Below are positions 3,763-62,690 of a stretch of DNA of 64,000 nt, piece after piece. Under the pieces are notes generated by a model. That model made no database searches, was not told where the DNA came from, and worked only from the letters and a program-made list of their open reading frames with translations. The position numbers and the translations under genes are program-made. The DNA comes from a virus (Duplodnaviria; Caudoviricetes), in IMG/VR virus record IMGVR_UViG_3300020045_001587, positions 1 through 64,000 of that record; one strand, given 5' to 3'. Each line of letters begins with the position of its first letter. Within the stretch, counting starts at the first letter, position 1.

Positions 3763-4878
3763 GCCTTGATTTCAACAATCCGCATAACAACATCCTCACC
3801 ATATGTAGCACTAGACCGGAAGGAAAGAGGTACATCAACCGTCATCTGTGGTGCTACTTGCCTAGCCCTGTCAATTGTTACATTATGGCACCACAAATAG
3901 GCATACACTTCGGCTTCTCGCATTGTGTCAAATGTGCAACAAGCCCATTGTTTCTTATTTGTGTGAATGGAAGCATCCTTCCAGACGTTATTAGCCTTGT
4001 CCGAACATTCTTGCACTTTGAACATTATTTCTCCCATTGCCATTCTGTACGAATAACAGCATCCGCACTAAAACTAACCCTCACGGGTTGCGCCACCCGA
4101 GCATAGTTTAAAGCTAGGTCATTCTCTATGCGTGCTGGCTGTGTTATTGTAAATAATACATTTGTTGTCATCTCACATCCGAACTCTTTTAGTAGCTCGG
4201 TAAGACGCTGTTCAAATTTTATTGTGTTCACAGCAACGCCTCCCCAACAGCTTCCAATGCTTGTTTGTAGCGTAGGGCATAATATTCTATGCTGTATGTT
4301 GTAGGGTGGGTCATGTCATTCCTCTGTTCATCTGTCGAGCAATATTATCAGCACTCACTGTCATAAGCGTCTCTGAGCATTCATCACAGCCAAGAAAGAA
4401 TAAGCATTCAACGTCATTTGTACTAAGCCTATTATGCTGCACCTCAGACCGATTGACAATAGAGGTTTGCCATGTAAGATGAGTGCTACCACAGTTTTTA
4501 CATTCTGTTGGCTGTTTCATTTTAGTCTTTCGTTATCGCAAAACGTATTTATATCAGTTTGTTGGGCTGGCGTCAAGTAAAATGTGAAAATAGTTTTGAA
4601 TGCTTCAATCAATCCGCTGTCTTCCTCGTAGACTCCTGAGACTATTTTCTTATAATCGCTCATCAGGGCATTCACTACAATATTGTTTTCTTCGTCGTAT
4701 GTCATTATAGCTCCACAGTATATCCAACGTTAATCAATTTATTGTCGGTCGGGTGCTGTATGTAGACATTGGCCTTACACTCTTTACCGTCAACAAGGCA
4801 CCTAGTTTTAACCATGTCCCGCCCCAAGTCGTCCAGTTCTGCGGGGTCTTGTAATAGCTCTATAACTTCATATTTCAT
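3759..4878 (-). other. Cluster of small hypothetical genes (3759-4043, 4025-4231, 4311-4520 Zn-ribbon-like, 4517-4705, 4705-4878)
   Basis: Abutting or overlapping leftward ORFs with RBS; CxxC...CxxC in 4311-4520. Confidence 0.7.
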
Positions 4879-4887
4879 ATAAATCCT

Positions 4888-6180
4888 TTATTTAGAACAA
4901 TCCACCACTTGTGGGGCGTCATCTTCAAGCCAATTCATTTTCATGCTTACCACTCGGTCAACCTCAATGACGCGCTTGTATGCGTAAGACATAGCAGACA
5001 CAAGAAAATCGGAATTCTTACGTTGCACAATAAAGCTGTCATGCACCACAAGCACAGGCTGTTGAATCTTTACAAACTCGTCCAGAACATAATGCGCGAT
5101 CCAGCTATCCTTGTTCTGTAGAATTAGCCCGGTGCATTCCTTGTTACAGAATTTACTTTTGAACTCTGGTAGCTTTTTGTATATATCCTTTACTACGTCA
5201 TTGCCTCTAGAATAACAGTATGTTCCTTTGGGTTCCTCGTCAATCAGATCGCTAATTGCTTGCTTAGCCTTGTACTCAGATGTAGCGTTAAGCATGATAT
5301 TTATGCCTAGCTTTACAAGCCGCCGATTATTTGTGCTATAGTTTTGCTTGTCTAGCACATGATAATAAATGTCAACACCACGATATGCAGTAATTCCCAT
5401 TATATCAGATAGCATATTTATGTGCAAGCAATCAAAATCAATTTCAACTATTGATTCTCCGTCAATTGTTGTTCGTAGTCTGTTGTTAGTTTTCTTATTC
5501 TTTATCTTTAGAATGGCAGCCTTAAACCACCGACCACCAAAGAAGAAAGATTCATTATTGAATATCCTACCGTACATATTGACCATGTAGTCGCCATTAT
5601 AGTCTAGGAACTCATGCTTAAAGTTCATCAAGTTAACAGCGCTCACTACTCGTTCGGCTTCCAGAATGCTGTCATTGAATTCAAACGAAACCTTGTTCTT
5701 CTTCTTGTCCCTTAACTCAATACTGGCATTAGCGAGAACATGGCTTATCTCGGCATTAGTAATCAAGTCATCTTTCTTTGTACAGAACTTATTAATGAAT
5801 AATTCTGTAGGTACAACATAAGAGGACTGCTTAGTGTCAATGCTGCCATACTGCCTACTAGCAGGATAATCAAACAGATAACCTAGTTGCTCTAGTTCTT
5901 CCACAGCATTAGTGATCGAGTGATTAGATAAATCTCTTTTATTATAGATGGTCGGTAGCTTGGCTGTCTTAGCTCTAAGATAATACAATCTCTGTCTCCT
6001 AGCAACACAAGCAATCATATTCATGATCACAACATGCAAGGCACTACGATTCTTAGTCTTCCATCTTTCTGTTGTCTTACGTACTCTCTTATCTATATCT
6101 ATATTCAACATCATACGCTTACTGTTGCTTGTGTATGCTTGTGTGCTTAGGGTTATTCCTTCTTCTGTTACTCGTATCAT
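4888..6180 (-). CDS. Compact T7-RNAP/PolA-superfamily polymerase-like protein (430 aa)
   Basis: GGRWF, motif A-like VEIDFDCLH, motif B-like RRLVK, motif C VHDSFIV (T7 RNAP has IHDSF). Confidence 0.7.
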   Translation of the reverse strand: MIRVTEEGITLSTQAYTSNSKRMMLNIDIDKRVRKTTERWKTKNRSALHVVIMNMIACVARRQRLYYLRAKTAKLPTIYNKRDLSNHSITNAVEELEQLGYLFDYPASRQYGSIDTKQSSYVVPTELFINKFCTKKDDLITNAEISHVLANASIELRDKKKNKVSFEFNDSILEAERVVSAVNLMNFKHEFLDYNGDYMVNMYGRIFNNESFFFGGRWFKAAILKIKNKKTNNRLRTTIDGESIVEIDFDCLHINMLSDIMGITAYRGVDIYYHVLDKQNYSTNNRRLVKLGINIMLNATSEYKAKQAISDLIDEEPKGTYCYSRGNDVVKDIYKKLPEFKSKFCNKECTGLILQNKDSWIAHYVLDEFVKIQQPVLVVHDSFIVQRKNSDFLVSAMSYAYKRVIEVDRVVSMKMNWLEDDAPQVVDCSK

Positions 6181-6320
6181 CTAATCCTCTATAACTTAGT
6201 ATTCCTCCACAGTCAGGCGGGCCTACTCATTAAGGCAAGAAAAACATACACAAATACCCGAAAAGTGAGTATCCATGCGGGTTCTGAGACATTTCATGTT
6301 AGGTTATGCCCGCCTTCACA
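6181..6320 (-). ncRNA. Putative structured 5' leader / ncRNA upstream of the polymerase-like gene
   Basis: Closing stem AGGCGGGC/GCCCGCCU (6308-6315/6215-6222), inner ACCCG/CGGGU stem, possible UACUCA/UGAGUA pseudoknot; starts right after a consensus promoter. Confidence 0.5.
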
Positions 6321-6324
6321 CTCA

Positions 6325-6352
6325 ATTATACAGCAAATTTGTACCCTGTCAA
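6325..6352 (-). promoter_or_regulatory. Consensus promoter TTGACA-16-TATAAT
   Basis: Perfect hexamers upstream of the leader and polymerase-like gene. Confidence 0.85.
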
Positions 6353-6361
6353 TTGGTAGTA

Positions 6362-8169
6362 TTACGTAGACAAAGTAACAACATTAGCCTCCCACCAATC
6401 CACACAATATTGACAACTACCGGACATCTGTACAACACCTCCCGACAACGTGCTAATCTTATGCACCTTACCAATACGTGTCATCTTGTACATGTCGCAT
6501 TGCTTCACCATAACTTCTTTCTCGGCTGGCTTTACATTGCCGACAGCCATTCGTGGAATTCCTACATGCTGGAATACTTGGCCGTTCTTTGATTGTGTTT
6601 TAGTGTTATTGTACATATCAACGCTCCAACGTAACAGACCCATGAAATTGCTTAAACCCTTCCTTAGCCCAATCATCCTCATTGCAGCCTATACGGGGTT
6701 CGAGAGCATGACTTATAACAGTGCCCCAGAAATACTCACAACATGAGCCTGTAACAATTAAAATAAGACTTGCATCATACTTGCACACAACAATATTTCC
6801 AACATAAAAGATGTTGTCGCTATCATCAGATGATTGTACCACAGTAGATTTAAATTTGTTCATTTGTATTTATCCTTAAAATTGATTACAGCCCCTTAGA
6901 GCCACTCTTACTATCTTCCTACACTTACCCTTGCCAAGCTCTACAAACGTCGCTATTAGCCGTTAAAGGGCATTGCTGTGGATGTCATTACACCAACCTA
7001 GACAATGCGTCTCTAGCATCAGTCAAGTTATCATATGCTTCTGTACAATCTTCTTTCAATTGCTCTAATTCATCAATAAACTCATCCAGCTTGTCACGAT
7101 CAGACGCTACTTTAGCCATATGCTTGTCAATATTCTTGACAATACTCTCAATCTTACTTTTGGTAAGCATATCATTCCTCCAAACAATCAATAGTTAATT
7201 GTGCAATATAAGCTGCATACGTTCCCGGACATTTTAGCACAATTTCTTTGAGATTGCTTAGGACAAGTGTTAGTTGTTTATCTGTCATTACAACACCTTT
7301 AATTGTGACATCAATTCAGCAATTCTTTTATTATATTCTTTTGCAGTGATTTTGCCAGAATTAAATAATGTACCAAGGTGGTAACGTGATTGGATAAACT
7401 CTTGTTCGGTCATTGTACACCTTTTAAACGTTGTTTGTACCTATATTTATCAAGATATTCCCCTTCATAAATACATCCCTCTACAAAGTAGCTGTATCCG
7501 CTCCATTTATTTTGAATACAATACGCTTCTGCATCCTCAAGCGTTTTGAATTCTTTTTCTTCACTCCCGCAGTAAGAGTTATAATCCCTGTCTACTTCGC
7601 CAATGAAAAATCTCATTACGTATTCTCCTAATTTATACAAAGTTATTCTTTAGTTCTTGAGCAATACCAGCCAGCATAAAACCTTGCCCAAAACAATATT
7701 TGTACAATAGTAAATATATGCCAATTCATATTATTCTTCTTCAATCAACTCATTTTCAACACAGCAAGTTATCCAAGCGTCCTGCTCACACTCATACCGA
7801 CCTGTACCTTTTTCATCACCCTCTGTCCAATAGTGATAAAATCCATAAGGTAGGCGCCTATTTGGAAAACTAGCGTAAGTAGACTCTACTCTATAGCCTG
7901 CCATGCGTGCAATAGCTTTATGTGTCAATTTCATATCATTTCTCCTCAATATCCAAAACACAGGCTTCACAGAACGAATGCATTCCAAGCCCTGTATGTT
8001 CGCCAAACACTTTGATAATTTCCCATATTTGCATTTTAACAATGTCTCCTTCCTTCGTGTGGTATGTCATGCGAAATTGCTTAGGAATGCTATTATACCT
8101 GTTATTGTAAATCTCTGCGCCATGTGCTGTCAATGTGAAATAGGCGTAATTGTTAATGTTTATTTTCAT
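6362..8169 (-). other. Cluster of small hypothetical genes (e.g. 6618-6863, 6988-7191, 7410-7640, 7936-8169)
   Basis: Co-oriented short ORFs with RBS-like sequences. Confidence 0.65.
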
Positions 8170-17190: not shown

Positions 17191-17269
17191 ATTATAACAG
17201 AAATCTGCAAAATGTCAAGGAAATGTTGTAGAAATTAATTGTTGACATTGTGTAGAAATGGCGTAGAAT
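17191..17269. promoter_or_regulatory. Divergent promoter pair: minus TTGACA-16-TATAAT (17191-17218) and plus TTGACA-16-TAGAAT (17242-17269)
   Basis: Consensus hexamers at the strand switch. Confidence 0.8.
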
Positions 17270-27472: not shown

Positions 27473-28486
27473 TTGATTGAAGTTATTGGTAAAGCAGGAA
27501 TTATAGCAAAGATTTTGGCAGATAGTGTAAATGAACAAGGAAATCGTCTTGTAACATATGAACTAACATACCCTCGTCTGATTCACTCGGAATTACTCAC
27601 GCACAAAATGCTATGCTCTAATTCTGCCAGCAGTCGAGCTATTCCATTTGCAAAGATGGCTGAACAGCTTACGGCACAACCTGTGCGTTTTGGTCAAGCC
27701 AATCCGGGGATGCAAGATAAGGGTGTGGATTTTGACGCTGCTGTATTTGGGTTGTACAGTGCAGGAGAGGCTTGGCTTAAAGCTAAAGACGCTATGGTCT
27801 ATGCTTCTGATGCTTTCTATAACGCAGGCTACCACAAGCAAGTGTACAATCGTCTGACAGAACCATTCCAGATGATGAAGACGGTTATTTCTGGCACCGA
27901 ATGGGACAACTTCTTCTGGCTACGTAATGATAGTGCAGCGGACCCTACACTGCATGAATTGGCACGTTGTATGTTTGAGGCCCTTGAGCAGAGTGTTCCA
28001 CAATTGCTTAAAGCTGGTGAATGGCATTTGCCTTACATTGATGTAGATTATGCTGACATTGGTAATGGTGAACAGCAGTTTTACTTCTTAGATGAAACTC
28101 ATTGTATGGGTGATAACATCAGCTTAGAAGACGCCATCAAAGTGAGTTGCGCTCGTACAGCCGCTGTTTCCTTCCGTAATGAGGACTATGGTCTTGACAA
28201 GTGCTTGGAAGTGTATGCACGACTGATTGACGATGAGCGTAAACATGCTAGTGCTATGCAACATGCTGCTGCGCCGATACAGCAAACTCACTGTAGCCAC
28301 GATTGCCACACTGATGATCTTGACCCTTATAACAGTGTTAATGTAACTTTTGAGCCTCGCTCTTGGCAAAAAGGTATCTCTCACGTAACACGAGATGGTA
28401 AACTATGGAGTGCTCAATACTGTGGCTGGATCATGCATCGCAAAACCATTCCCGGAGAGAATTATGCGAAAGAAAAGCAGGGCTAA
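27473..28486 (+). CDS. thyX: Flavin-dependent thymidylate synthase
   Basis: ELLTHKMLCSNSASSRAIP (variant of RHRx7SxR), HKQVYNRLTEPF, HASAMQH. Confidence 0.85.
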   Translation: MIEVIGKAGIIAKILADSVNEQGNRLVTYELTYPRLIHSELLTHKMLCSNSASSRAIPFAKMAEQLTAQPVRFGQANPGMQDKGVDFDAAVFGLYSAGEAWLKAKDAMVYASDAFYNAGYHKQVYNRLTEPFQMMKTVISGTEWDNFFWLRNDSAADPTLHELARCMFEALEQSVPQLLKAGEWHLPYIDVDYADIGNGEQQFYFLDETHCMGDNISLEDAIKVSCARTAAVSFRNEDYGLDKCLEVYARLIDDERKHASAMQHAAAPIQQTHCSHDCHTDDLDPYNSVNVTFEPRSWQKGISHVTRDGKLWSAQYCGWIMHRKTIPGENYAKEKQG

Positions 28487-29759: not shown

Positions 29760-31529
29760 ATGTCAGCCATTGCTGAGAAGTATGGTATTGATTTGACGCG
29801 AGATGGTAAGGTAGGTTGTCCCGGTTGCATCCGTAAGGGTGGTGATAATAGCCGGAATAACCTACAAGTGTATGGAAGTACGGAGAGCGCCCATTGCTTC
29901 GCTTGTGGCTGGACTATTGCTAGTAAAGAGCATAGGGAAGCAATGGGATGGGATGATGAGGATTATGAGGAGCTTGAAGAAGTGAGTACACGAGAAAAAA
30001 TTACGGCAGAAGATAATGAGCGTATTAAAGGTTATACAACCACTGACGGAAAAGGTTATCGTGGAATTAAAAACAGCACGAATACTTTCTTTGGTGTGCG
30101 CTATGAATTAGATGAAATCACTGGCGAAGTAGTTAAGCAGTATGTTCCTACAACTATTAGTGGGGAGCTTAGTGGCTATCGCACTCGCCGACTCCCAAAA
30201 GACTTTGCAGGACCAGTAGGCCAAGTTGGTAAAGAGTGTGATATGGTGTTTCAGTTTCGGTTCAAGACTCACACTGGCACTTGCATCATAAGTGGCGGCG
30301 AAACCAAAGCATTAAATTCTTACCAGATGCTCTATGACAATCAAGCCGCTCGTGGTAAACTTGATTACGAAACGACCGCTGTAGTTTGTTCTACTTTAGG
30401 GGAGTCTGGCGCGCACAAGCAAGTGCAAGCACAATATGAGTTCTTCAACCAGTTTAAGAAAGTTATCATCTGCATGGATGAGGATGAAGCTGGACAGAAG
30501 GCTGTTGAGCAGCTTGTTAAGGTCTTGCCTAAAGGGCGTGTATGGATCATGCGTATGCGGTATAAAGATGCGGACATCTACGTAGAAAAGAATAAACAAC
30601 AGGAATTTATTCAAGACTTCTTGAAAGCCAAGAAATACGTTCCGAACGGTATTACAGCTTCTACAGACATTACTGACAAGATGCGGGAGTTTCTGAGTAA
30701 ACCCCGTTTGTCCCTTCCACCATATCTTCATAAATTACAGAAGAAGCTGCGGGGTGGGCTTCCAGTTTGTATCTTTAATATTTTGAGTGCTAGTGGTACT
30801 GGCAAGTCTACCCATGTGGATGCAATGACTCTCCACTGGATTATGACAGCAGACAAGAAGGTTGGAATTATTCCGATGGAAACCTGCGAGGGAGAGTACG
30901 GAGTTAATCTTCTGTCCTCTTACTCACAAGTTAAGATGAATTTGTTTGAGACTGTAGAAGAACGGTTGGGATTTATTGAGCGTGAGGACATTCTTGACTT
31001 GCAACAAGAATTGTTCTATGATGCTGATGGCAATCCACGTTTCTACATCCTTGACGCCGAAGCTGAAACTTTACAAGAACGTGTAGAGTACCTAATTGTT
31101 AGCCTTGAGTGTAAAATCATCATCATTGATCCAATTCAAGATGTATTTGACATGCTTGGAGAGGAAGAACAGGCTAAGTTTATGGGCTGGATGAAGGGCT
31201 GGATGAAGAAGGGCATCACTTTTGTGAACGTTAATCACAGCCGCAAGTCTGGTCAAGGTCAGAAGGCTAACAGCAAGGGCGCAGAGCTTTCAGAGGAAGA
31301 TATGATGGGAAGTTCCACCATCTTCAAGTCTGGTGGTGTAAACTTGATCTTGATGCGAAATAAGGACGCTGAAACAGAGGAAGAACGCAACACCACTGTA
31401 ATGAAGCTGAGTAAGGCTCGTGGGGTTGGTGATACAGGCATGGTAGGTAAATACTTCTATGAGATGGAAAAGCACAAACTGTGGGATTTGGAAGATTGGC
31501 AAGCACAGAACGCTCCATCTTATATTTAA
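29760..31529 (+). CDS. T7-gp4-like primase-helicase
   Basis: Zn-binding CPGC...CFAC, TOPRIM GETKA/MDEDEAG, Walker A ASGTGKS, IIIDPI, NHSRK. Confidence 0.95.
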   Translation: MSAIAEKYGIDLTRDGKVGCPGCIRKGGDNSRNNLQVYGSTESAHCFACGWTIASKEHREAMGWDDEDYEELEEVSTREKITAEDNERIKGYTTTDGKGYRGIKNSTNTFFGVRYELDEITGEVVKQYVPTTISGELSGYRTRRLPKDFAGPVGQVGKECDMVFQFRFKTHTGTCIISGGETKALNSYQMLYDNQAARGKLDYETTAVVCSTLGESGAHKQVQAQYEFFNQFKKVIICMDEDEAGQKAVEQLVKVLPKGRVWIMRMRYKDADIYVEKNKQQEFIQDFLKAKKYVPNGITASTDITDKMREFLSKPRLSLPPYLHKLQKKLRGGLPVCIFNILSASGTGKSTHVDAMTLHWIMTADKKVGIIPMETCEGEYGVNLLSSYSQVKMNLFETVEERLGFIEREDILDLQQELFYDADGNPRFYILDAEAETLQERVEYLIVSLECKIIIIDPIQDVFDMLGEEEQAKFMGWMKGWMKKGITFVNVNHSRKSGQGQKANSKGAELSEEDMMGSSTIFKSGGVNLILMRNKDAETEEERNTTVMKLSKARGVGDTGMVGKYFYEMEKHKLWDLEDWQAQNAPSYI

Positions 31530-45438: not shown

Positions 45439-46010
45439 TGTTGTGCATTTCGGTTAGCGACCTAAAGCTAGTAGACGAATTGTCGCATATGACAGAATTT
45501 GAAGTCGTACAAATTAAGAATGACAGCATTGTTGCCAAGTATGCACATGAGTGCGGTATTGACACAGATTTTCCTGTAATGTATATTGCGAACAAACATC
45601 GTAACCTACAAAACCAAATTGTTGTAGGTTATCGGCTGTGCGGTGAAGTGAGGATTGATAGTGAGTTTCGCAATAGTAATCGAAGCAGCATCACAGATCG
45701 TCTAGTTATGACAAGCTACACTGATCCTACGCTTATGGTAGAAGTTGCAGAACTCTCCTTCAAAGTAAGGGATTGGGAGGAGCATCTAAACGACAATGAC
45801 AGCCTTGATTGGGATGCTAGTCGCGCAGAACTACCTGACAGCCAACTAGAAGAAGGTTGGCAGCAAGAGGAAAAGAATATTCAAGCTATGAATGATATGC
45901 TTGTCAGTATTCGCGGCAGTTGCTACAACGCTTCCGGCAGTCTCAAGAGCGCTGAAGAATATAAGAAGTTTGATGAAGAACGTAAGAGCAATATTAACAA
46001 TAACAAGTAA
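45438..46010 (+). CDS. Hypothetical protein (190 aa)
   Basis: ORF coupled by a TAATG junction. Confidence 0.8.
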   Translation: MLCISVSDLKLVDELSHMTEFEVVQIKNDSIVAKYAHECGIDTDFPVMYIANKHRNLQNQIVVGYRLCGEVRIDSEFRNSNRSSITDRLVMTSYTDPTLMVEVAELSFKVRDWEEHLNDNDSLDWDASRAELPDSQLEEGWQQEEKNIQAMNDMLVSIRGSCYNASGSLKSAEEYKKFDEERKSNINNNK

Positions 46011-54144: not shown

Positions 54145-56454
54145 TTAAATCAAACCTTCAACAGTACAAGTGAGATAACTATTGGTAGAATACGCACAAT
54201 CAATTTCCCAATCCTTGTAATATCCATAGATGATGAGAGAAGTTTTCTCATTACTATTCAGATTGGTAATATTTGTGTTAGCATTCCATACGCACGGCGT
54301 CGCTCGTGCATTTGATAGAATACGTGCAACCAAATCAACCTGAGAGTCATCTACCAAACTCTTAGTGCTCATACGTTTGGCATAACCACGTTTAGTTAGA
54401 GTAGGATTGCCGAAAGCGTCCACAGTCTTTATTGAGTAGTCTGTAATACCAATTGTAGGCGATGTTTCTGTAGAGCCTAAATAGTATTTTGTGCCTACGA
54501 CGAAGTTACCAATCGCAGGTGCTAGAGTCGCATGATAAATGTCTAACGTCACATAAGTGTCTGCTGACATTGGAAGCCCTGTTATGGTGTAGTCCGTTAT
54601 TGGTACACCTATAGCTCCACCGGTGAAGTCTATCACTGAAGAATACACAGAAGTATATCCAGAATAGACATTAACTGTTATACTGTCAGCCACAACATTA
54701 ATGAAACTCATGCTTGGAAGATTAGCATATGCAATGGTTGCAATAATGCGCCCACCAACTGTCCCTACTGTCTGAGTACCAACTTGGGAGTCAAGCATTG
54801 CATACTTGTTTGTAGGACCAATCACAGACCACCATGTAGGTGATGTGGCAGGATTGTGGTCAGCATTAGATGCTTGTAGGGACGCATACTTTACATGGTT
54901 GTATATAACAGAATTGCTCCCAGCAACATCAACACCATAAGTTGTGGCACTAGACCAAACTGGAAAATCATTCTCTAAGATATTACTATAAACCAACCCT
55001 GTAGTGTACAAGTCAGCAGACCTTACATTGCTGAGTGAGGATGTGTAAGAGTCCGCTGTAGATGTTACAGCCGCAGTGCTTGTAAGTATTACGGAAGTCT
55101 CAACATAGCCAGTTTCAAATTGAGCATTCCATATAGTCTGACTGCCTACAGCAGTCACATCAACTATCCCTGACCCGTTACTGTTAAATGCTGGGTACAC
55201 GTCAACAGAGGTAGTAGAAAGACTGTTATTAAAAGTTCCAATGGAAACCCTCCACCATGCAGGGTAACTTCTAACATTGACATACTTTGGATCATTTGTT
55301 GACGAATTAGTTACATATGCTCCAGTGTCAGTGTTAAAGACAATACCAGCTTTATACGTGCTTGTACCCATAACAATGGCTGGATAGATAGTGGCCCCAG
55401 AGGTTTTCTTTATGAATACCGAGAATACTCTCATCAGAGTATCCGATGGAGTCGTTACAGATTGTGTCAATAAACCAGAGGTTATATTACTAGAATCAGT
55501 GATTATTGTACCTGAACTATTAGATACAGTTGGGTCAGATGAGTTATTAGAACCTACTGAGATATTTGTTGCTACCCAAGGAGAGGATAAAAACGTTCTT
55601 GACCTTAATAACATATTAGTTATGGAAGGCTCTAGGAGTAACTTAGGCGCTAGCGTTAAATTATCTGGAGTATAGTCATTTCTAGCTGCTCCGGTAACTG
55701 TATCTAATAGTCCGCTTGCGTTTGTATAGTATTTAGTCCCTGATGTCGATACAAATGTTTGTACAGAGGGGATATAGCTTGTTGGAACCAGCCCTGTCTC
55801 TACTTGAGCACCCCAAACGTAGATACCTGAAGAGCCATCACCAGTGTAACTAATACCGCCGTTGTATGTTCCCACAATAAGGTTTACTGAGCCGATAGCT
55901 TGAGCAACTGTGCATCTATACCAGCCATTTCCTACATTCTGGATAGATGGAGCTATTGCCGGTGTCCCTTGTGCAATTACTGTGTAAGTACCTGCCACCA
56001 AATCAAATGAGACAGTGCTTCCTGTTCCCCCCGTACCTGTAGTACGAATGTATGCACTTGTCCGCTCTCTCGCTTTTAGATATACGGAGCAAACACAGCT
56101 TGGAGACACACTTACGAAAATAGTTCTGTCAATAGTGTGATTGTTATTAGCTGTATTCTCTATTAAAGCTATTGCTGTGTATGTACCATCTGGCGCTTTA
56201 GCAGCATGTGGTGCAACTGTAGCGTTAGAACGATTCCATACAGCTACTCCAAAATCTTCCGTCTCATTATAAACGTTTGTTGCGGCAGCTTCAATAACTG
56301 GTACAGGGGGGGCACTTAGGTTAGCAGGATTGTACCCGACTCGCAATACGTCGTTAGCTGCGAAGGTCAAGAGTCCTGTGCTATTATAGTAAGCTGCTTT
56401 AGAACTTCTTGTGAATATACTTGTTCCAAGAGTCTGTGGTATAATTAAATCCAT
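54145..56454 (-). CDS. Tail-tip / distal tail protein with two inserted carbohydrate-binding-like modules
   Basis: Directly after the tape measure; two repeats of TN.....F..W...SV.IK...W.R...WxAQxETG. Confidence 0.7.
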   Translation of the reverse strand: MDLIIPQTLGTSIFTRSSKAAYYNSTGLLTFAANDVLRVGYNPANLSAPPVPVIEAAATNVYNETEDFGVAVWNRSNATVAPHAAKAPDGTYTAIALIENTANNNHTIDRTIFVSVSPSCVCSVYLKARERTSAYIRTTGTGGTGSTVSFDLVAGTYTVIAQGTPAIAPSIQNVGNGWYRCTVAQAIGSVNLIVGTYNGGISYTGDGSSGIYVWGAQVETGLVPTSYIPSVQTFVSTSGTKYYTNASGLLDTVTGAARNDYTPDNLTLAPKLLLEPSITNMLLRSRTFLSSPWVATNISVGSNNSSDPTVSNSSGTIITDSSNITSGLLTQSVTTPSDTLMRVFSVFIKKTSGATIYPAIVMGTSTYKAGIVFNTDTGAYVTNSSTNDPKYVNVRSYPAWWRVSIGTFNNSLSTTSVDVYPAFNSNGSGIVDVTAVGSQTIWNAQFETGYVETSVILTSTAAVTSTADSYTSSLSNVRSADLYTTGLVYSNILENDFPVWSSATTYGVDVAGSNSVIYNHVKYASLQASNADHNPATSPTWWSVIGPTNKYAMLDSQVGTQTVGTVGGRIIATIAYANLPSMSFINVVADSITVNVYSGYTSVYSSVIDFTGGAIGVPITDYTITGLPMSADTYVTLDIYHATLAPAIGNFVVGTKYYLGSTETSPTIGITDYSIKTVDAFGNPTLTKRGYAKRMSTKSLVDDSQVDLVARILSNARATPCVWNANTNITNLNSNEKTSLIIYGYYKDWEIDCAYSTNSYLTCTVEGLI

Positions 56455-56470
56455 CGTATTCCTTTAAAGA

Positions 56471-56496
56471 GAAACCTCCTATGTAAGCGAGGTTTC
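56471..56496 (-). terminator. Hairpin between the tape measure and tail-tip genes
   Basis: GAAACCTC/GAGGTTTC 8-bp stem with a weak U-tract. Confidence 0.55.
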
Positions 56497-56506
56497 TATA
56501 ATTACA

Positions 56507-59500
56507 TTAAGCTGGACCAGCAGTAGTTTGCAGAGACTGGCCGTTAGGTGACATGTCAAGAATTCGCTTGTACAGCTTGCGAATATCGCTCTGCATAGCT
56601 GACAACACTTCTAGTGAATCCGCATTGGATTTGTTGATATCTGACGATAGTCCACTAATATCAGAACCTTGTACAACACCTTGAGCTTGTTTGGCTGGCA
56701 ACACCATTTCACCCTTGTGGAGTTTAGCTGTATAGCCATCAAACGGTACGTTATCAAGTCCATTTGCATGAGAGCCATTAGGATGCGAAGCAAGATACTC
56801 TGCTGAAGTGTAGAACCCTTGAGCCACATCCATAGATGACAAGCCGGATTTAAGCCAGAAATCTACTCCAGATGCTTCACCTTCACGACCAAGAATAACT
56901 TGGTAGAGGGTTTTAATATCCTCTGCTGTAGCTGATTTTGGCGCTTCTACAGGTGCCGTAAGCCCACCGCTAGTTGCAGCAGCTTCGTTCTTTGTAGCAA
57001 TAGCAGTAAGAATTGAGGAATTAAAGCTGTCAAGCGCTTTAGCCATACTTGCTGAACTTATTGAGATTCCGTTAAGAACGTCCAGTTGACTCTGTGCCAT
57101 CGTCAACAGATTATCAAGCCCTTGAGTAATACTGTCATAGGTATTCTTTGCTATTACTAATTGAGACTTCAAAGCGTCGAGCTGCTTATCACTCACAGTT
57201 TTAGCACCTTTAGTAATGTCGTTAAGCTGATTAACTTTACCTGCTGTAATGCCCTGATCTTTGACATACTCTGCATAAGATGAGTACATGCTGTCACTAG
57301 GCTTTGTAATAGTGCTCAAAGCGTCTTTCAAACTATCTGCTGTAGGTAGTTTTCCAGTTTTAAGTGCTGTATCAAGAGCATCAGAGATTTGTTGCTGTGC
57401 TGCTCCACGGCTTGTCATTGTGACAGGTGCAGAGGATTTCAACGAATCAACAGTTGATTGCAGAGCATTTGACAAGTCTGTGATGAGTTTGTTGGCAACT
57501 TCAGCACTACTAATCTGAGCATTAAGAATAGCTACTTGAGCGTCGTATGTAGCTTTCGCAGCGTCTTTCTCTGCTTGTACAGAATTCTGAAGAACTTTAA
57601 AACTAGCGTCAGCTTGCTTGTAAGCCATGTCAATAGCTTTTTGCTGGGCTTCTGACAATCCGGTTAAAGCATCTGTTAGACTTGCTGTATAATCTACAAC
57701 TTGCTTAAACGCTGGAGCCAATTGCATTAGGCTTTCAAACATTCTGGCTTGTGCAGGGTCGGCAAGGTTTAGACCATTTACTAGCTTCTTGAAGTCTTCT
57801 GTAGTTTTTACACTTGAATAACCCATCTCAGCCAATGCGGCTGTAACAGCTTTCTGTACAGGAGCAATTTTCTCGGCATCTGTTAAGAAGTTTGTAGCGT
57901 AGAATGTTACTTGTGTGTTCAGGGCAGAAATACCACCAGCCAAGTCTACAAGGTATTGACGAGCTTTAGCGCTTTCTAAGCCAAGCCCACCAAATGCTTT
58001 AGCCATATCTTGACCAAGCACATTAGCAATCTGGTTTGTAGCTGCGAAGGTTTCTGACAAACGCTGCAATGTTCCAGAAGCTGTCTCACCAGATTTAGCA
58101 AAATCGCTCAGGTTAGGAATTAGCTTATTAGCCATATCGTCACCCATACTGTTGAAGAACTTTGCAACAGCATCTTGCTGAATCTTTGTGTTAGATTCAA
58201 TAATGGCAGCTTGTTCAGCAGCCGTACCTTTAACTTCTTTTAAACCTTCAAAGGTGATATTGAAATCTCTTGAATAGTTTGTCAGAGCATCAGCAGATAC
58301 GTTAAGATTCTTGGCAAAGTCTGTTGAAGTAGCTTTCAAACTCGTCAAGCCAGAGGCGAACGTATTGATAACATCCGTAGCCAAGTCTTGCTTTTCTGTG
58401 CCTGACTTATCACTTCTGAACCATCCACCGGACTGTTGCCAGTTTTGGTATGATTGACCTGTTACACCAGACTCTGCGATGGTTCCTGAAATACCTTGTG
58501 AGGTGACGTTCTTGCTACCCATGCCGAACGCACGGTTGATAAGACCGCCAATAGCTCCACCAATAGCACCTCCAATTGGGCCTCCAACAATTGAACCAAT
58601 AATAGCTGAAGTATTAACAACAGCTTGTCCATGACCACCAACACTGTAATCACCAGATATTGCGTTACCTAACATGTGACCTGCGGCTAACCCACCAGCA
58701 TAACCTGCTGCTTGCCCTATTGAATTAGCTGCTGCGCTATTTTGCCAGAATGTGGCTTCTTGTGCATTTGAAGTTCCTAATGCGTTGAATGTTTTCTGAG
58801 CAGCATTGGAAACCATTGTGCTCAAGCCATCAAAGCCTTTAGAAATTGCACTGTACACGTTAGAGGCAATCTGAGCTAAACCAACAGCACCACTAGCCGT
58901 ACCTGCCACAGCACCCGGAGAGCTTGCACCGACAGTAGTTGTAAGTGAAGCAATCGTTCCGCTAATAGGAGCCAGAATAGGCTGCAAAATCATCTTAGCA
59001 AAGCCTATTTCCATATCCTTGATAAGTTTCTTCCAACCTTTGCCACCACCGTCAATGATTGCTTCAGCTAAGTCGTTTCCAATTTGCTTGTTGGCTTGCT
59101 TCCAAGCTGTTGTATATTCCTGAGCAGCTTTGTTGGTAGCTTGTTGGGCTTCGCGTGTTGTTTGTACGTCGCGTAGATCAATCAGAGCTTGCTTCTCATC
59201 TTTCAGCTTCTGTATCGTGTCAGCGCCCACAAATTGATATTCAATTTCCTTATCAATTTCTTTCTGCTTATTGTCAATTGCAGACTGTGTAACTTGATCA
59301 CGCATTTGTTTGTCAGTCACACCAGCGGCGCGAGCCGCTTCTGGAAGACGGTTGTAAGCGTCAATTTCATTCTGAATGGCCGCTGTTTTTCCAGTGGTTG
59401 CTGCCATGAACTTCTCAAAAGCCCTCTGAGAATCTTCAGCTTCTTTTTGGAATACTTTGGCCGTTACATTACCATTCTCTACAATAGCGGCATTTTCTTT

Positions 59501-62128
59501 AGCTAATTCGTCAACATACTTAGTGTACAAATCTGACAACTTTTTAGAAAGCTCATTTTTTTCAGTTGCATTCCGTCCAGCTAATACTGAAGACTTAGCA
59601 ATCGCTTCAGCTTCTTTGACATAAGTTGAAGTAGTTAAGTCTTGTTCTTCTTTGAGCTTTTTACCCTTAGCACTCACATACTCGAACACTGAGAGTTGTT
59701 TTGCTTTATAGGCGTTATCAAAAGCAACAACTTCACTTTGTAATATCTTCTTCTGTTCTTCGCCAGAAGACCTTAAAGCAGCTAATTCAGCCTCAATTGC
59801 AGACAGGCCCATAGCTTTTTCTTTACCATCTTTTCCACCGCTATATGTCAAAGTTCCAGCAGTATTTTTAGCAGCTTCAGCAGCCGCTTTTTGAGAATCT
59901 AGATATGCTTCTTTTTTCTTCTGTTCAGCACTGATAATGCGTTGGGTTAGATCAAGAGCTTTCTGATTTTCTGTTGAAGCTTTGTTTTGAGCATCGGTAA
60001 GCGCCTTCGTAGCGGAAGCAAGCTCTGTCGCCTCTTTACTTCTTAGTTTGTCAAACGTGTAGTCTTGAATGGCTTTCGCATCGTAGGCTTTCTGAGCAGC
60101 ATCTTTTGCTTTCTGAGCAGTAGCCACTTCATTTGCGTTATTTAAACGCATTCTTGACAGTGCCTGATCCTTCAGAGACAGTGACATAGCATCCGATTCA
60201 GTCCTACCCTCTGTCATTAACTTATTGACTTTATCAAGCCTGTCAGCTTCGTCTTCTAGCGATTTTAAGAATGATGTATTATAAGTGTCGCTTAACTTTC
60301 TGGTATTATCATCTGTTTCTTTTGTATGCAACGCCAGCAGGCTCATACCAATAGTAATTGCTGTAAGTACAGCGCCTACTCCGGGAAGCAATCTTAATGC
60401 CATGCCAACAGCACCTACGCCTACGGCTGCACCGTTTGCAGCAACCTGTACAACACCTAGGCTAACAGCAATCCCTGTGAGTCCTCTGGTAACAAGTTCA
60501 AATAGGTTTGCACCTAATGTTGCAGCCTTGAACACAACAAAGGCTTCAATCAAGTATCCTAGTGCTGTGGTGTTTTCTGCAATAAACTGTGCAATACTTC
60601 CAATACCAGAAGCAATGTTTTGGATTCCTGTGATAAACTCTTGTGACGCAAATACAGACTTCATGTTTGATGTAAACACAAGCATCTGTGGAGCCATTCC
60701 TTCAAATGCCTTTGAGAAACTAGTTTTAAGAGTGTTAGCAACAGAATCTAATTGTTTCTGTGTTGTAAGACCTAATTGAGCCGCTTGCAATGCTGCCGTA
60801 CCCGCCGCCTCTGCAATTTGTCCCTGTACTTCACGCAATCTATTTGAATACTTTTCGGTGTCATCAGCAGCAGAATTAACTAGATCACGCAAGCCCTCTA
60901 CATCTCGCAATGCACGCTCACCGAATATATTCATAATGAAGTTTTGCTGCGACTTCAAATCATACTTATTCAGCTTACTCGTAAATTCTTCGTAGGCAGC
61001 AATCAGAGGTTTTGCTCTGCCCTCGGCGTCAGTAAAGCTCATCCCAAGTTCATCTAATGCGTCCTTAGCCTTCTTAGTACTACCTACCGCATTAGCATAG
61101 AAGTTTGTGATAGCCGTACCTGCTGCTGTATTCTTAATACCAAGCTGTGCAAGAGCAGCAGTTTGTGTAAGAATATCCTCAAATGTAGCTCCGTACAATT
61201 TATTTACGACAGATGCACGCTTGACAGCCTCTGAGATAGAGTCAACAGATGCCAGAGAAGTGTTAGCTGCGGCTGTAATTCCGTCTGCTAAATAGTCAAA
61301 GTCCTTTGCTGTAGCTCCGACAGCAGAACCAATAGTAACTAAAGATTCTGCTGCTTTTTCAATAGTTGATCCACCAGCGGTAGCTAGATTGATCGCAGAA
61401 CCAATAGCCAGTGTTGACTCTTTAGCTTTCAAGCCTGCCAGAATCAGGGCATCAAAAGCTTTTGCAACTTCTTGTGGCCCGTAAACACCTTCTCCAATTT
61501 TGTACACTGAGTCACGAATCGCTATCATTTCTTCTGTAGTAGCTGCACCACGGACACGAATACTCTCCAAAGTATTTTCAACATCCGAGCCAACAGATAC
61601 AATACTTTTCAAAGATTGACCAATAGCAAGACCGACTGCCATGCCTGCAAAGTTACCGTAAGTAACCCACAACGCACCAAAGGAGCCAGATAAACCTCGT
61701 GCGAGTGCATGAGCCTCTTGCATAGCTTCATTGTTTGAGCGATGAGCCCTTTCTACGACTTGCAGATTTGCGCTAACTTGTGGAAGGGATACAGCCAATG
61801 CTTGCATTGCTATAGCAAGAGAAAACACGCTAGAAGTAATGGCAGCTTGTGTAGCTGTGACAGATCGCATTGCATTCGCGTATGCGTTACTTTGCGTGAC
61901 GTTTTCACGTAACTGGTCTGACTGCTTGCGGTAGCTTGCCAAAGCGGAATCTAATGCGGAAGCAAGAGCTTTGGCAGATTCTCCACCCGATTTGTTTGCG
62001 GTAGATAATTGACCCGTTGCTTTCTCTGCTTTGGTGGAAGCATCCGTCAGGTTGTTAAGGGACTTAGTGGTAGCATCAATACCGTCCGATACCACTTTTA
62101 CAATAAGACTATTTACGTCAGCAGCCAT
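56507..62128 (-). CDS. Tail tape measure protein (1873 aa)
   Basis: Ala-rich helical protein, TP901-like N-terminal region, HANGLDNVPFDGY...HKGE C-terminus, position after the chaperones. Confidence 0.97.
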   Translation of the reverse strand: MAADVNSLIVKVVSDGIDATTKSLNNLTDASTKAEKATGQLSTANKSGGESAKALASALDSALASYRKQSDQLRENVTQSNAYANAMRSVTATQAAITSSVFSLAIAMQALAVSLPQVSANLQVVERAHRSNNEAMQEAHALARGLSGSFGALWVTYGNFAGMAVGLAIGQSLKSIVSVGSDVENTLESIRVRGAATTEEMIAIRDSVYKIGEGVYGPQEVAKAFDALILAGLKAKESTLAIGSAINLATAGGSTIEKAAESLVTIGSAVGATAKDFDYLADGITAAANTSLASVDSISEAVKRASVVNKLYGATFEDILTQTAALAQLGIKNTAAGTAITNFYANAVGSTKKAKDALDELGMSFTDAEGRAKPLIAAYEEFTSKLNKYDLKSQQNFIMNIFGERALRDVEGLRDLVNSAADDTEKYSNRLREVQGQIAEAAGTAALQAAQLGLTTQKQLDSVANTLKTSFSKAFEGMAPQMLVFTSNMKSVFASQEFITGIQNIASGIGSIAQFIAENTTALGYLIEAFVVFKAATLGANLFELVTRGLTGIAVSLGVVQVAANGAAVGVGAVGMALRLLPGVGAVLTAITIGMSLLALHTKETDDNTRKLSDTYNTSFLKSLEDEADRLDKVNKLMTEGRTESDAMSLSLKDQALSRMRLNNANEVATAQKAKDAAQKAYDAKAIQDYTFDKLRSKEATELASATKALTDAQNKASTENQKALDLTQRIISAEQKKKEAYLDSQKAAAEAAKNTAGTLTYSGGKDGKEKAMGLSAIEAELAALRSSGEEQKKILQSEVVAFDNAYKAKQLSVFEYVSAKGKKLKEEQDLTTSTYVKEAEAIAKSSVLAGRNATEKNELSKKLSDLYTKYVDELAKENAAIVENGNVTAKVFQKEAEDSQRAFEKFMAATTGKTAAIQNEIDAYNRLPEAARAAGVTDKQMRDQVTQSAIDNKQKEIDKEIEYQFVGADTIQKLKDEKQALIDLRDVQTTREAQQATNKAAQEYTTAWKQANKQIGNDLAEAIIDGGGKGWKKLIKDMEIGFAKMILQPILAPISGTIASLTTTVGASSPGAVAGTASGAVGLAQIASNVYSAISKGFDGLSTMVSNAAQKTFNALGTSNAQEATFWQNSAAANSIGQAAGYAGGLAAGHMLGNAISGDYSVGGHGQAVVNTSAIIGSIVGGPIGGAIGGAIGGLINRAFGMGSKNVTSQGISGTIAESGVTGQSYQNWQQSGGWFRSDKSGTEKQDLATDVINTFASGLTSLKATSTDFAKNLNVSADALTNYSRDFNITFEGLKEVKGTAAEQAAIIESNTKIQQDAVAKFFNSMGDDMANKLIPNLSDFAKSGETASGTLQRLSETFAATNQIANVLGQDMAKAFGGLGLESAKARQYLVDLAGGISALNTQVTFYATNFLTDAEKIAPVQKAVTAALAEMGYSSVKTTEDFKKLVNGLNLADPAQARMFESLMQLAPAFKQVVDYTASLTDALTGLSEAQQKAIDMAYKQADASFKVLQNSVQAEKDAAKATYDAQVAILNAQISSAEVANKLITDLSNALQSTVDSLKSSAPVTMTSRGAAQQQISDALDTALKTGKLPTADSLKDALSTITKPSDSMYSSYAEYVKDQGITAGKVNQLNDITKGAKTVSDKQLDALKSQLVIAKNTYDSITQGLDNLLTMAQSQLDVLNGISISSASMAKALDSFNSSILTAIATKNEAAATSGGLTAPVEAPKSATAEDIKTLYQVILGREGEASGVDFWLKSGLSSMDVAQGFYTSAEYLASHPNGSHANGLDNVPFDGYTAKLHKGEMVLPAKQAQGVVQGSDISGLSSDINKSNADSLEVLSAMQSDIRKLYKRILDMSPNGQSLQTTAGPA

Positions 62129-62147
62129 TATATTCCCTTAACATATT

Positions 62148-62690
62148 CTATTTATTATGTACAAACTTAGCAAGGAAGTCCTCACCAAATGCTGTACTCT
62201 CAGCCAGCGCGTCAACTTCATCCAAGAATATTTCTTTAGGACAAGGGGCATCAGGCTCTGAGGCACTGTGATATTCTCCACAATACTCTCTACTCAATTG
62301 CATAATTATTTCTAGCTCATAATCTACAAGCGTATTCTGTTTCAGGATGTGAGGAACTTTTGTGACGCTAATCACATTCCCTTCACCGTCCTTTGTAACA
62401 CTGTCAAGCCATTCTACGTATTGTTCTGTGTAGAACCTATCAGCCCAAGCAATAACCTCACTCCAAAGCAAAGGAGCAACACCCATGCCACTCTGAGAAA
62501 CACTACCTACTTCTCTCCAAAGTTTCACAAGATGTTGCTCATAGTCATCCAATTCTGGAGGCTCTAGGTATGCTGTTCCCTCTACCATTGTTTCTCTGCG
62601 TGGCTTGCTTTGCTCTTTTGGAGTTGCGTTTAGCCACGCAGAGTGTCGGACGTAGAGGGAAAGGTTATTTCTTAGGCTTGCAAGAAAGAA
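62148..62690 (-). CDS. Tail assembly chaperone, -1 frameshift extension (gpT-like)
   Basis: The frame stays open 34 codons upstream of the ATG at 62588 and overlaps the end of the upstream gene. Confidence 0.7.
   Translation of the reverse strand, partial: FFLASLRNNLSLYVRHSAWLNATPKEQSKPRRETMVEGTAYLEPPELDDYEQHLVKLWREVGSVSQSGMGVAPLLWSEVIAWADRFYTEQYVEWLDSVTKDGEGNVISVTKVPHILKQNTLVDYELEIIMQLSREYCGEYHSASEPDAPCPKEIFLDEVDALAESTAFGEDFLAKFVHNK

Follow-up and report, generated by a model that had tools for sequence, protein, structure and literature searches.

A minimal winged-helix polymerase of the divPolA2 family encoded alongside a replicative PolA in a tailed phage: a candidate site-targeted primase-polymerase

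Introduction

What does a phage that already encodes a replicative DNA polymerase and a primase-helicase gain from a second, much smaller polymerase? The question is raised by an open reading frame (ORF) on the minus strand, at positions 4888–6180, of the virus record IMGVR_UViG_3300020045_001587 (Duplodnaviria; Caudoviricetes). It has an ATG start, and its 430-amino-acid (aa) product, hereafter referred to as the mini-polymerase, was described in a sequence-only reading as a protein with the fold of T7 RNA polymerase (T7 RNAP) and PolA, which might be a minimal RNA polymerase, a primer-synthesis enzyme, or some other nucleotidyltransferase. The window, that is, the whole stretch of DNA analysed here, is the first 64 kb of this 83,724-bp IMG/VR record, and positions refer to the window unless stated otherwise.

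Judging by its predicted fold and by residue conservation, the mini-polymerase is almost certainly a catalytically competent minimal member of the family-A/T7-type polymerase superfamily, composed of a winged-helix head, a short helical connector, an Arg-bearing β-hairpin, a palm of the RNA recognition motif (RRM) type, and reduced fingers, with no exonuclease. Its sequence places it in divPolA2, a family described by computation (Yutin et al. 2024, Virol J 21:200, PMC11348598). As for its function, we tentatively favour, at somewhat less than an even chance, a site-targeted primase-polymerase that would start replication of the phage or of an excised island. The features on which the argument relies are collected in Table 1.

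Table 1. Features of the mini-polymerase, its gene, and the phage genome. Window positions, except for the last row, where positions are those of the record.
Feature	Position	Strand	Basis
Mini-polymerase gene (divPolA2, probably TV-Pol type; predicted minimal PolA/T7-RNAP fold)	4888..6180	-	ORF, translation, AlphaFold2 model, fold matches, family profile
Predicted winged-helix domain of DNA-binding type, residues 30–140	5761..6093	-	PadR profile matches; VIA Z 5.4–6.5
Connector of two long helices and one strand, residues 141–200, in the thumb position (putative equivalent)	5581..5760	-	model secondary structure
β-hairpin, residues 204–219, with invariant G216-R217 (GR of the T/DxxGR element)	5524..5571	-	strands 204–207, 215–219
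Motif A strand and helix, residues 242–257; putative metal ligand pair E246-x-D248; H253 at Asp+5	5410..5457	-	strand 242–249, helix 252–261
O-helix-like motif B, residues 283–298, R286-x3-K290-x7-N298	5287..5334	-	helix 283–298
Motif C β-turn-β, residues 377–386, H380-D381-S382-F383	5023..5052	-	strands 377–379, 382–386
Sigma-70 promoter of the mini-polymerase gene, TTGACA-16-TATAAT, 12/12	6325..6352	-	consensus scan; ~145 nt upstream of the ATG
5' leader, ~145 nt, with a terminator-like hairpin (6278–6248, then a T run) and the element AACCCGCAT	6181..6324	-	sequence, terminator scan
Toprim and DnaB-type primase-helicase (T7 gp4-like), directly upstream of PolA	29760..31529	+	Toprim_2 E 5.9e-9, AAA_25
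Regular DNA polymerase of family A, T7 type (708 aa; VHDE; Asp+5 is Glu)	31544..33670	+	PF00476 E 3.9e-11; T7 gp5 BLASTP E 7e-16; PDB T7 DNAP E 1e-7
Minus-strand sigma-70 promoters	17218, 14484, 12293, 8133, 6352	-	11–12/12 consensus
Plus-strand sigma-70 promoters	17242, 24467, 25863, 33685, 38834, 45559, 48220, 48746	+	11–12/12 consensus
Structural-block sigma-70 promoters (record positions)	65047, 67548, 73655, 77659	-	11–12/12 consensus

Conserved residues and predicted fold

The motifs named in the sequence-only reading, namely, GGRW, IDFD, R-x3-K, and VHDSF, are all present in the protein (GGRW 215–218, EIDFD 246–250, R286-x3-K290, and VHDSF 379–383; coordinates checked by translation) and prove near-invariant in homologues. 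Residues G216, R217, E246, D248, Y272, K290, H380, and D381 are invariant across 85 diverse homologues. In 68 bacterial homologues, GGR, E246, D248, H253, D270, Y272, R286, K290, N298, and HDSF are conserved at 94–100%, and G216, R217, E246, D248, K290, H380, and D381, at 96–100%. The individual values are 96% for E246, 99% for D248, and 97% for H253 in motif A; 94% for D270, 99% for R286, 100% for K290, and 96% for N298 in the fingers; 100% for D381 and F383, and 99% for H380 and S382 in motif C. GGR is kept in 99–100% of homologues, R217 being invariant or at 99%. When family members are aligned to the family hidden Markov model, the exact E/D/H/HDSF state is seen in 230 out of 296.

The AlphaFold2 model, built on the 85-sequence alignment, has a predicted local distance difference test score of 94.8 and a predicted template modelling score of 0.91. 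Both palm and fingers are modelled, and the two catalytic aspartates, D248 (at the end of strand 242–249) and D381, are kept at 99–100%, which upholds the PolA/T7-RNAP fold originally proposed from the motifs. In a Foldseek comparison with the PDB, the top matches are family-A DNA polymerases, that is, the apicoplast Pol, Aquifex Pol I, and Klenow, with E from 4e-6 to 1e-4. In the VIA search, residues ~145–425 match apPol with Z 15.9 (245 residues aligned, root-mean-square deviation 3.8), Pol nu with Z 14.7, Klenow with Z 14.6, and T7 DNA polymerase (T7 DNAP) with Z 13.5. The alignments with RNA polymerases extend further N-terminally: Z is 13.9 for the yeast mitochondrial RNA polymerase (mtRNAP; residues 65–414) and 12.3 for T7 RNAP (residues 38–414), while the N4 mini-vRNAP (Z 8.6) and N4 RNAPII gp16 (Z 7.8) are among the lower matches. 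As the gaps in Z between DNA-polymerase and RNA-polymerase matches are small, the fold assigns the enzyme to neither group.

The predicted N-terminal head (residues 30–140) resembles winged helices of the MarR/PadR/GntR type, and the family profile gives only weak winged-helix matches in the PDB, to PadR-type regulators (E 0.005–0.016). The absence of exonuclease motifs, asserted earlier, agrees with this, as the N-terminus is modelled as a winged helix and no exonuclease family of Pfam or NCBIfam is matched. Structural alignments to PolA begin around residue 142–150, and helices 137–150 and 170–187 would lie at the thumb location, as judged by secondary structure.

The sequence itself gives little trace of this fold. 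Neither the mini-polymerase nor any of 134 relatives has a Pfam or NCBIfam match at cut-off, all 134 family members fail to match PF00476 (DNA_pol_A), and PF00940 (RNA_pol) is matched neither by the mini-polymerase nor by 85 relatives; of 49 distant relatives, one matches PF00940 weakly (E 0.018), short of the cut-off. Searched against the PDB, the single protein (phmmer) and the family profile retrieve no polymerase. With hhalign, the family profile gives nothing against the window PolA and T7 DNAP, and against T7 RNAP the sole local match, a weak one (E 0.041), places VHDSF onto IHDSF 810–814. PHROGs assigns the mini-polymerase to phrog_4756, "unknown function." At the same time, a phmmer search of 1.84 billion cluster representatives retrieves 2348 clusters (at 50% identity) with E<=1e-3, 445 of them with E<=1e-10. 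The family, for which Pfam and NCBIfam have no model and whose members are listed in phage records as "hypothetical protein," is hence large and includes a protein of the cholera phage ICP1 and integrase-linked bacterial islands. With its 430 aa, the enzyme would approach the smallest functional core of the Pol I/T7 RNAP superfamily, to which it adds a DNA-reading domain of its own.

Membership in the divPolA2 and TV-Pol families

The novelty implied by the sequence-only reading does not survive comparison with the literature, where the family is already published as divPolA2; it also fits the description of TV-Pol. The profile of 85 homologues matches the ORF encoding AUR84708 (MG592441:25469-26761) with E 1.1e-42 over positions 12–402 of 414, and BLASTP aligns residues 78–262 of the mini-polymerase with the same protein (E 8e-8, 26% identity). 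AUR84708, from Vibrio phage 1.063.O (MG592441), is the published divPolA2 representative (PMC11348598). In addition, a barbavirus protein is among the BFVD fold matches.

divPolA2 was described as an extra divergent PolA of ~430 aa, found in barbaviruses and other phages, where its gene neighbours vary and a genome may have as many as three paralogues; PolA and mtRNAP are both among its structural matches, and it was proposed to act either as a DNA polymerase in repair or as an RNA polymerase (PMC11348598). The mini-polymerase is similar in its size of ~430 aa, in the combination of an N-terminal globular domain with PolA-like palm and fingers and no exonuclease, in being encoded beside a regular DNA polymerase in a variable neighbourhood, and in the presence of paralogues in some phages. 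It differs in that the regular polymerase of this phage is PolA, as opposed to PolB in barbaviruses, and in that the N-terminal domain, for which Yutin (2024) found no similarity, is identified here as a winged helix. The thumb is regarded as missing in divPolA2 (PMC11348598).

TV-Pol, in turn, was defined as the minimal core of the superfamily, comprising, besides a thumb, a hairpin that bears an Arg, a palm with two Asp, and fingers that carry an Asp and RxxxK (Iyer, Abhiman, Aravind 2008, Biol Direct 3:39, PMC2579912). The thumb was described as a bi-helical coiled coil, and a primase-polymerase activity, i.e., priming and copying of the element, was inferred from gene context (PMC2579912). 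The mini-polymerase has a hairpin with an invariant Arg, an RRM palm with two catalytic Asp, and fingers with an Asp (D270) and RxxxK, inserted after the first palm strand; it is never fused to a nuclease, and its bacterial homologues share the island contexts (lambda-type integrase or resolvase, restriction-modification (R-M) genes) and the taxa listed by Iyer et al. for those TV-Pols that have an N-terminal domain. On the other hand, the N-terminal domain was predicted by these authors to be all-helical, while a winged helix is seen in our model.

Pfam and NCBIfam hold no TV-Pol sequence model for comparison. No fusions with a D5 helicase were found, as no relative of 787–2245 aa was retrieved, which is weak evidence. 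The family profile has no match at E<=10 in the genome of Microcystis phage Ma-LMM01, where TV-Pol was placed by Iyer et al.; the PF00476 matches there correspond to the regular split PolA of that phage, and MAP_134, which adjoins a transposase and a resolvase and was considered as a TV-Pol candidate, was rejected as a DnaG-type primase. Sputnik V13 is absent from the top 50 BFVD fold matches. Nevertheless, with all four structural hallmarks examined being found, together with the island context, the mini-polymerase family probably belongs to TV-Pol. It is not contained in the 2023 reclassification of PolA.

Active-site states and comparison with assayed polymerases

In the mini-polymerase clade, to which nearly all relatives retrieved belong, motif A is E-x-D with His at Asp+5, the position Lys+8 of motif B is Asn, and motif C is HDSF. 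AUR84708 (L138:3470-4762) has V-x-D, Glu at Asp+5, Tyr at Lys+8, and FDE, which are DNA-polymerase states, and gp100 of ICP1 has S-x-D, His, and HDAL. On this sequence evidence, the divPolA2 family holds at least two active-site types, whose residues change together. For reference, Asp+5 is Glu and motif C is HDE in the window PolA and in T7 DNAP, while T7 RNAP has Gly and HDSF; the distinction drawn earlier between IHDSF of T7 RNAP and HDE of PolA is correct, as checked on T7 genes 1 and 5. At Lys+8, T7 RNAP and AUR84708 have Tyr, and the mini-polymerase has N298. In T7 RNAP, this residue, Y639, reads the 2'-OH and selects ribonucleotides (rNTPs).

The motif register suggests that the mini-polymerase clade has lost the PolA steric gate, with H253 replacing Glu, and the third carboxylate seems to be supplied no longer by motif C, where it is the Glu of HDE, but by E246, on the strand of motif A. 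These states appear compatible with the use of rNTPs without proving it, the 2'-OH-reading Tyr of T7 RNAP being likewise absent. The coexistence of Glu/FDE/Tyr and His/HDSF/Asn within one family provides a natural experiment on the choice between rNTPs and deoxyribonucleotides (dNTPs).

The DNA-polymerase-like residues of AUR84708 (Glu at Asp+5, FDE, Tyr at Lys+8) speak for one of the options proposed by Yutin (PMC11348598), repair: the protein would be an accessory primer-dependent DNA polymerase that repairs phage DNA, fills its gaps, or bypasses its lesions, and takes no part in initiation. PolA DNA polymerases being the closest folds and many repair polymerases also being exonuclease-less, this would agree with the general architecture of the protein; however, the mini-polymerase clade itself does not have those states, a sequence-reading winged helix and the pairing with integrases and resolvases in tiny islands would be hard to explain, and the ICP1 homologue is expressed early, ahead of bulk replication. 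We therefore consider a repair polymerase distinctly unlikely.

Experimental proof of de novo priming by this fold comes from one system only, CcPol-MP of SCCmec, an A-family complex and a proven primase (Bebel et al. 2020, eLife 9:e55478; Rice 2023). Like the mini-polymerase, CcPol is an exonuclease-less A-family polymerase residing on a mobile element, apart from the main replicase. Unlike it, CcPol is recognisable as PolA by sequence, whereas the mini-polymerase has no Pfam PolA match. CcPol keeps the equivalents of E710 and F762 and uses dNTPs (eLife 9:e55478), while the mini-polymerase has His in place of this Glu; and CcPol needs the downstream-encoded OB-fold partner MP and a helicase, while the mini-polymerase has no conserved partner and carries its DNA-binding domain fused in cis.

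With T7-type RNA polymerases (T7 gene 1, mtRNAP, and N4 RNAP II gp15/gp16), the mini-polymerase shares the palm/fingers fold (Z 12–14, and 7.8 for N4 gp16), the GR hairpin, RxxxK, the HDSF motif C, and a small or non-acidic residue at Asp+5. It differs in being at most half their size, in the absence of the T7-type N-terminal domain, specificity loop, and intercalating hairpin, in Asn rather than Tyr at Lys+8 (N298, 96%), and in that PF00940 is unmatched and phage-specific promoters were not found. At origins, both T7 RNAP and mtRNAP act in the priming of replication as well. From canonical PolA (PF00476), the mini-polymerase is distinguished by HDS instead of HDE, His instead of Glu at Asp+5, and the lack of a DNA_pol_A match.

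Relatives in bacteria and phages

Prokaryote genomes, one for each species, were scanned with an 18-sequence alignment, as in all locus scans of relatives, and yielded 240 loci, which belong to Rhodobacterales (Loktanella, Sulfitobacter, HTCC2083), Rhizobiaceae, Mesorhizobium, Brevundimonas, sphingomonads, Desulfobacterota, Lentisphaerota, and others. Neighbourhoods were inspected for 80 of these loci. A Phage_integrase-family (tyrosine integrase) protein of ~530 aa directly adjoins the polymerase gene in 45 out of 80, and a serine resolvase, in 15 out of 80; R-M genes of types I and III lie in the flanks of the islands, and the recurrent annotated neighbour clusters contain no other replication gene. 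The phage copy has no adjacent recombinase.

In the FastTree tree of the catalytic domain (123 sequences, midpoint root), phage copies form a clade of their own with support 0.90–0.97, and the only "bacterial" rows inside it are contigs binned into metagenome-assembled genomes (MAGs), two of them being copies on one phage-sized 83.9-kb contig. The separation of phage copies from island copies points to long retention in phages. A plasmid replicon was also considered and rejected, as only three of 72,556 plasmid records contain a relative, none of them small. Recurrent neighbours in phage loci are AP2-domain proteins, PhoH, a Clp-like protease, DnaB (six loci), and terminase.

The phage studied here has one copy of the mini-polymerase. 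Two diverged paralogues at distant positions are seen in two 89-kb IMG/VR contigs (L013/L044 and L017/L048) and in the 83.9-kb contig (L054/L055), which is binned into a Sediminibacterium MAG and looks like a mis-binned phage genome.

Transcription of the phage genome

Sigma-70 promoters matching 11–12 out of 12 consensus positions are present on the correct strand in every gene block, that is, in the early, replication, and structural ones (Table 1), the host thus likely being a bacterium with a classical −35/−10 RNA polymerase. They include a divergent pair at 17.2 kb (17191–17269) and sites at 33685–33713 and 38834–38862. No repeated phage-specific motif of at least 16 nt with a promoter-like distribution was found in the genome. 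Taken together, this indicates that transcription of the whole genome lies within the reach of the host RNA polymerase; the phage would probably require no transcribing enzyme of its own, and a T7-style transcriptase role is thereby disfavoured.

These data bear directly on the possibility that the mini-polymerase is a miniature DNA-dependent RNA polymerase for transcription, whose winged helix would read one or a few phage promoters, yielding mRNA or a specific non-coding RNA. It was raised for divPolA2 (PMC11348598) and would agree with the HDSF motif C shared with T7 RNAP, the absence of the PolA steric-gate Glu with H253 in its place, Z of 13.9, 12.3, and 7.8 for mtRNAP, T7 RNAP, and N4 RNAPII gp16, respectively, and the weak PF00940 match of one relative; moreover, the gene is driven by a host-type promoter, as is T7 gene 1, and an RNA with a single target or a lone private promoter would escape the promoter search. 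Still, correctly oriented host-type promoters serve all three blocks, a repeated phage-specific promoter was not found, Asn occupies the place of the 2'-OH-reading Tyr, and a private transcriptase would have no obvious use in the small integrase islands of the bacterial relatives, so that we regard this role as unlikely. Hence, among the three functions named in the sequence-only reading (minimal RNA polymerase, primer synthesis, other nucleotidyltransferase), the polymerase fold common to them stands and a transcriptase is disfavoured by the sigma-70 promoters, while sequence cannot choose among the three.

Leader of the mini-polymerase gene

The gene is preceded by a leader in which the element AACCCGCAT recurs in the close relatives L005, L006, and L010; it is not repeated elsewhere within the window. 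Promoter-like sites are found at −170 to −200 in L005, L006, L007, and L010, and untranslated gaps of 140–500 nt are common upstream of homologues. The leader as a structured RNA was rejected: its stability does not exceed that of shuffled sequences (z −0.7), and neither an Rfam match nor a covariation-supported consensus structure was obtained.

Such leaders could, in principle, be part of a system whose nucleic-acid product is a specialised one with no bearing on genome replication, e.g., one in which the enzyme copies its own leader or a small RNA, in the manner of retrons or DRT, into a decoy or signal for counter-defence or exclusion. The long 5' untranslated gaps, the terminator-like hairpin next to a short conserved element, the two or three paralogues in some phages (including those of PMC11348598), and the R-M defence cargo of the bacterial islands could all be interpreted in this way. 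We nonetheless deem it very improbable, given the ordinary stability of the leader, the missing consensus structure and Rfam family, the absence of matches to PADLOC defence families in both the mini-polymerase and its neighbours, and the R-M genes, which look like island cargo rather than partners.

Possible role in replication initiation

The separate full DNA polymerase noted earlier at 31544–33670 is confirmed (Table 1). Given that the phage already has this replicative PolA and a DnaG-type primase-helicase, an accessory, site-specific role would fit the mini-polymerase better than bulk synthesis. In the scheme that we favour, the mini-polymerase would be expressed early by the host RNA polymerase, thanks to the strong sigma-70 promoter that precedes its gene; the winged helix would place the enzyme on a specific DNA site, where the palm would begin a short chain de novo. 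The replacement of the steric-gate Glu by His and the HDSF motif C are the reasons to think that this chain could be RNA. It would then be passed to the phage's own helicase-primase and PolA, in parallel to the role of T7 RNAP at the T7 primary origin and of mtRNAP at mitochondrial origins.

This initiator role is suggested by the combination of a fused sequence-reading domain, a separate bulk replicase, the island context with no recurrent replication gene, the CcPol-MP precedent, and the expression timing and position of the ICP1 homologue. The latter, ORF100/gp100 of Vibrio phage ICP1 (555–557 aa, annotated as hypothetical), has, according to the published RNA-seq table, 12.9–33.4 thousand reads at 4 min, peaks at 20–41 thousand at 8 min, and then declines, with kinetics matching those of the ICP1 replication genes. 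It is located at 56,043–57,710 in the engineered reference and at 58,951–60,618 in the wild-type record; the early bidirectional (theta) origin of ICP1 was mapped by marker-frequency sequencing "near the 60 kb position." A distance of a few kilobases between ORF100 and the mapped theta origin is suggestive, albeit not decisive.

Several observations weigh against an initiator. ORF100 is only ~25% identical to the mini-polymerase, and the ICP1 origin is resolved in 1-kb bins only. In this phage, no convincing iterons or AT-rich origin-like block were found beside the mini-polymerase gene, which lies 11 kb from the strand switch and the turning point of GC skew. No conserved partner gene was found across 44 viral loci, whose neighbourhoods vary, the position of the gene differs from phage to phage, and the near-absence of relatives from plasmids, small ones in particular, is unexpected for a self-sufficient initiator. 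The register that places H253 at the steric gate (Klenow D705/E710) follows from motif spacing and secondary structure, not from superposition.

A bolder form of the site-targeted primase-polymerase reading, which we hold doubtful, is that the HDSF/ExD/His clade of divPolA2 would be the smallest natural single-subunit DNA-dependent RNA-synthesising polymerase, a self-targeting "initiator polymerase" whose fused winged helix reads the origin while the palm lays the first leading-strand RNA primer. If true, phages and integrative islands would have a third way to initiate replication, in addition to DnaA/Rep-type initiators acting with DnaG or AEP primases, and the change from Glu/FDE/Tyr to His/HDSF/Asn would represent a natural DNA-to-RNA switch of sugar selectivity within one family. 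Site-specific priming, if shown, would explain how replication starts in these phages and islands, support the TV-Pol prediction of 2008, and supply a compact polymerase scaffold.

Other features of the genome

The neighbours of the mini-polymerase gene are small, poorly conserved ORFs. It is followed, where the CcPol-MP type has its small OB-fold partner gene, by a 57-aa ORF (4705–4878), which is kept only in the close relatives L005 and L006, and the operon contains no helicase. Three genes downstream, in the same direction, a 69-aa ORF (4311–4520, minus strand) has two CxxC pairs suggestive of a zinc ribbon; no homologue of it adjoins the polymerase gene at other loci, which makes a conserved partner improbable.

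Other genes of the phage encode a 1873-aa tape-measure protein, a ligase, and thymidylate-synthase-like, ribonucleotide-reductase-like, and C5 methylase proteins. The C5 cytosine methylase (PF00145; 1553–2461, minus strand) and the thymidylate-synthase-like protein (phrog_85; 27473–28486, plus strand) point to a possible modification of the phage DNA.

The record carries a 121-bp terminal direct repeat; hence, the assembly may be circular and the origin of coordinates arbitrary. Just inside this repeat, there is a perfect 75-bp inverted repeat (117–191 and 336–410, with a 144-bp spacer), which may be genuine, forming a cruciform or hairpin, or may have arisen by misassembly at the contig end. 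Finally, an 18–20-nt motif similar to ATATGCTTGTCAATATTC and containing TTGACA/TTGTCA occurs in two overlapping copies 12 bp apart at 7118–7149, where it may be an operator or promoter element, and in two distant copies, 90–94% identical, at 45895–45912 and 62271–62290.

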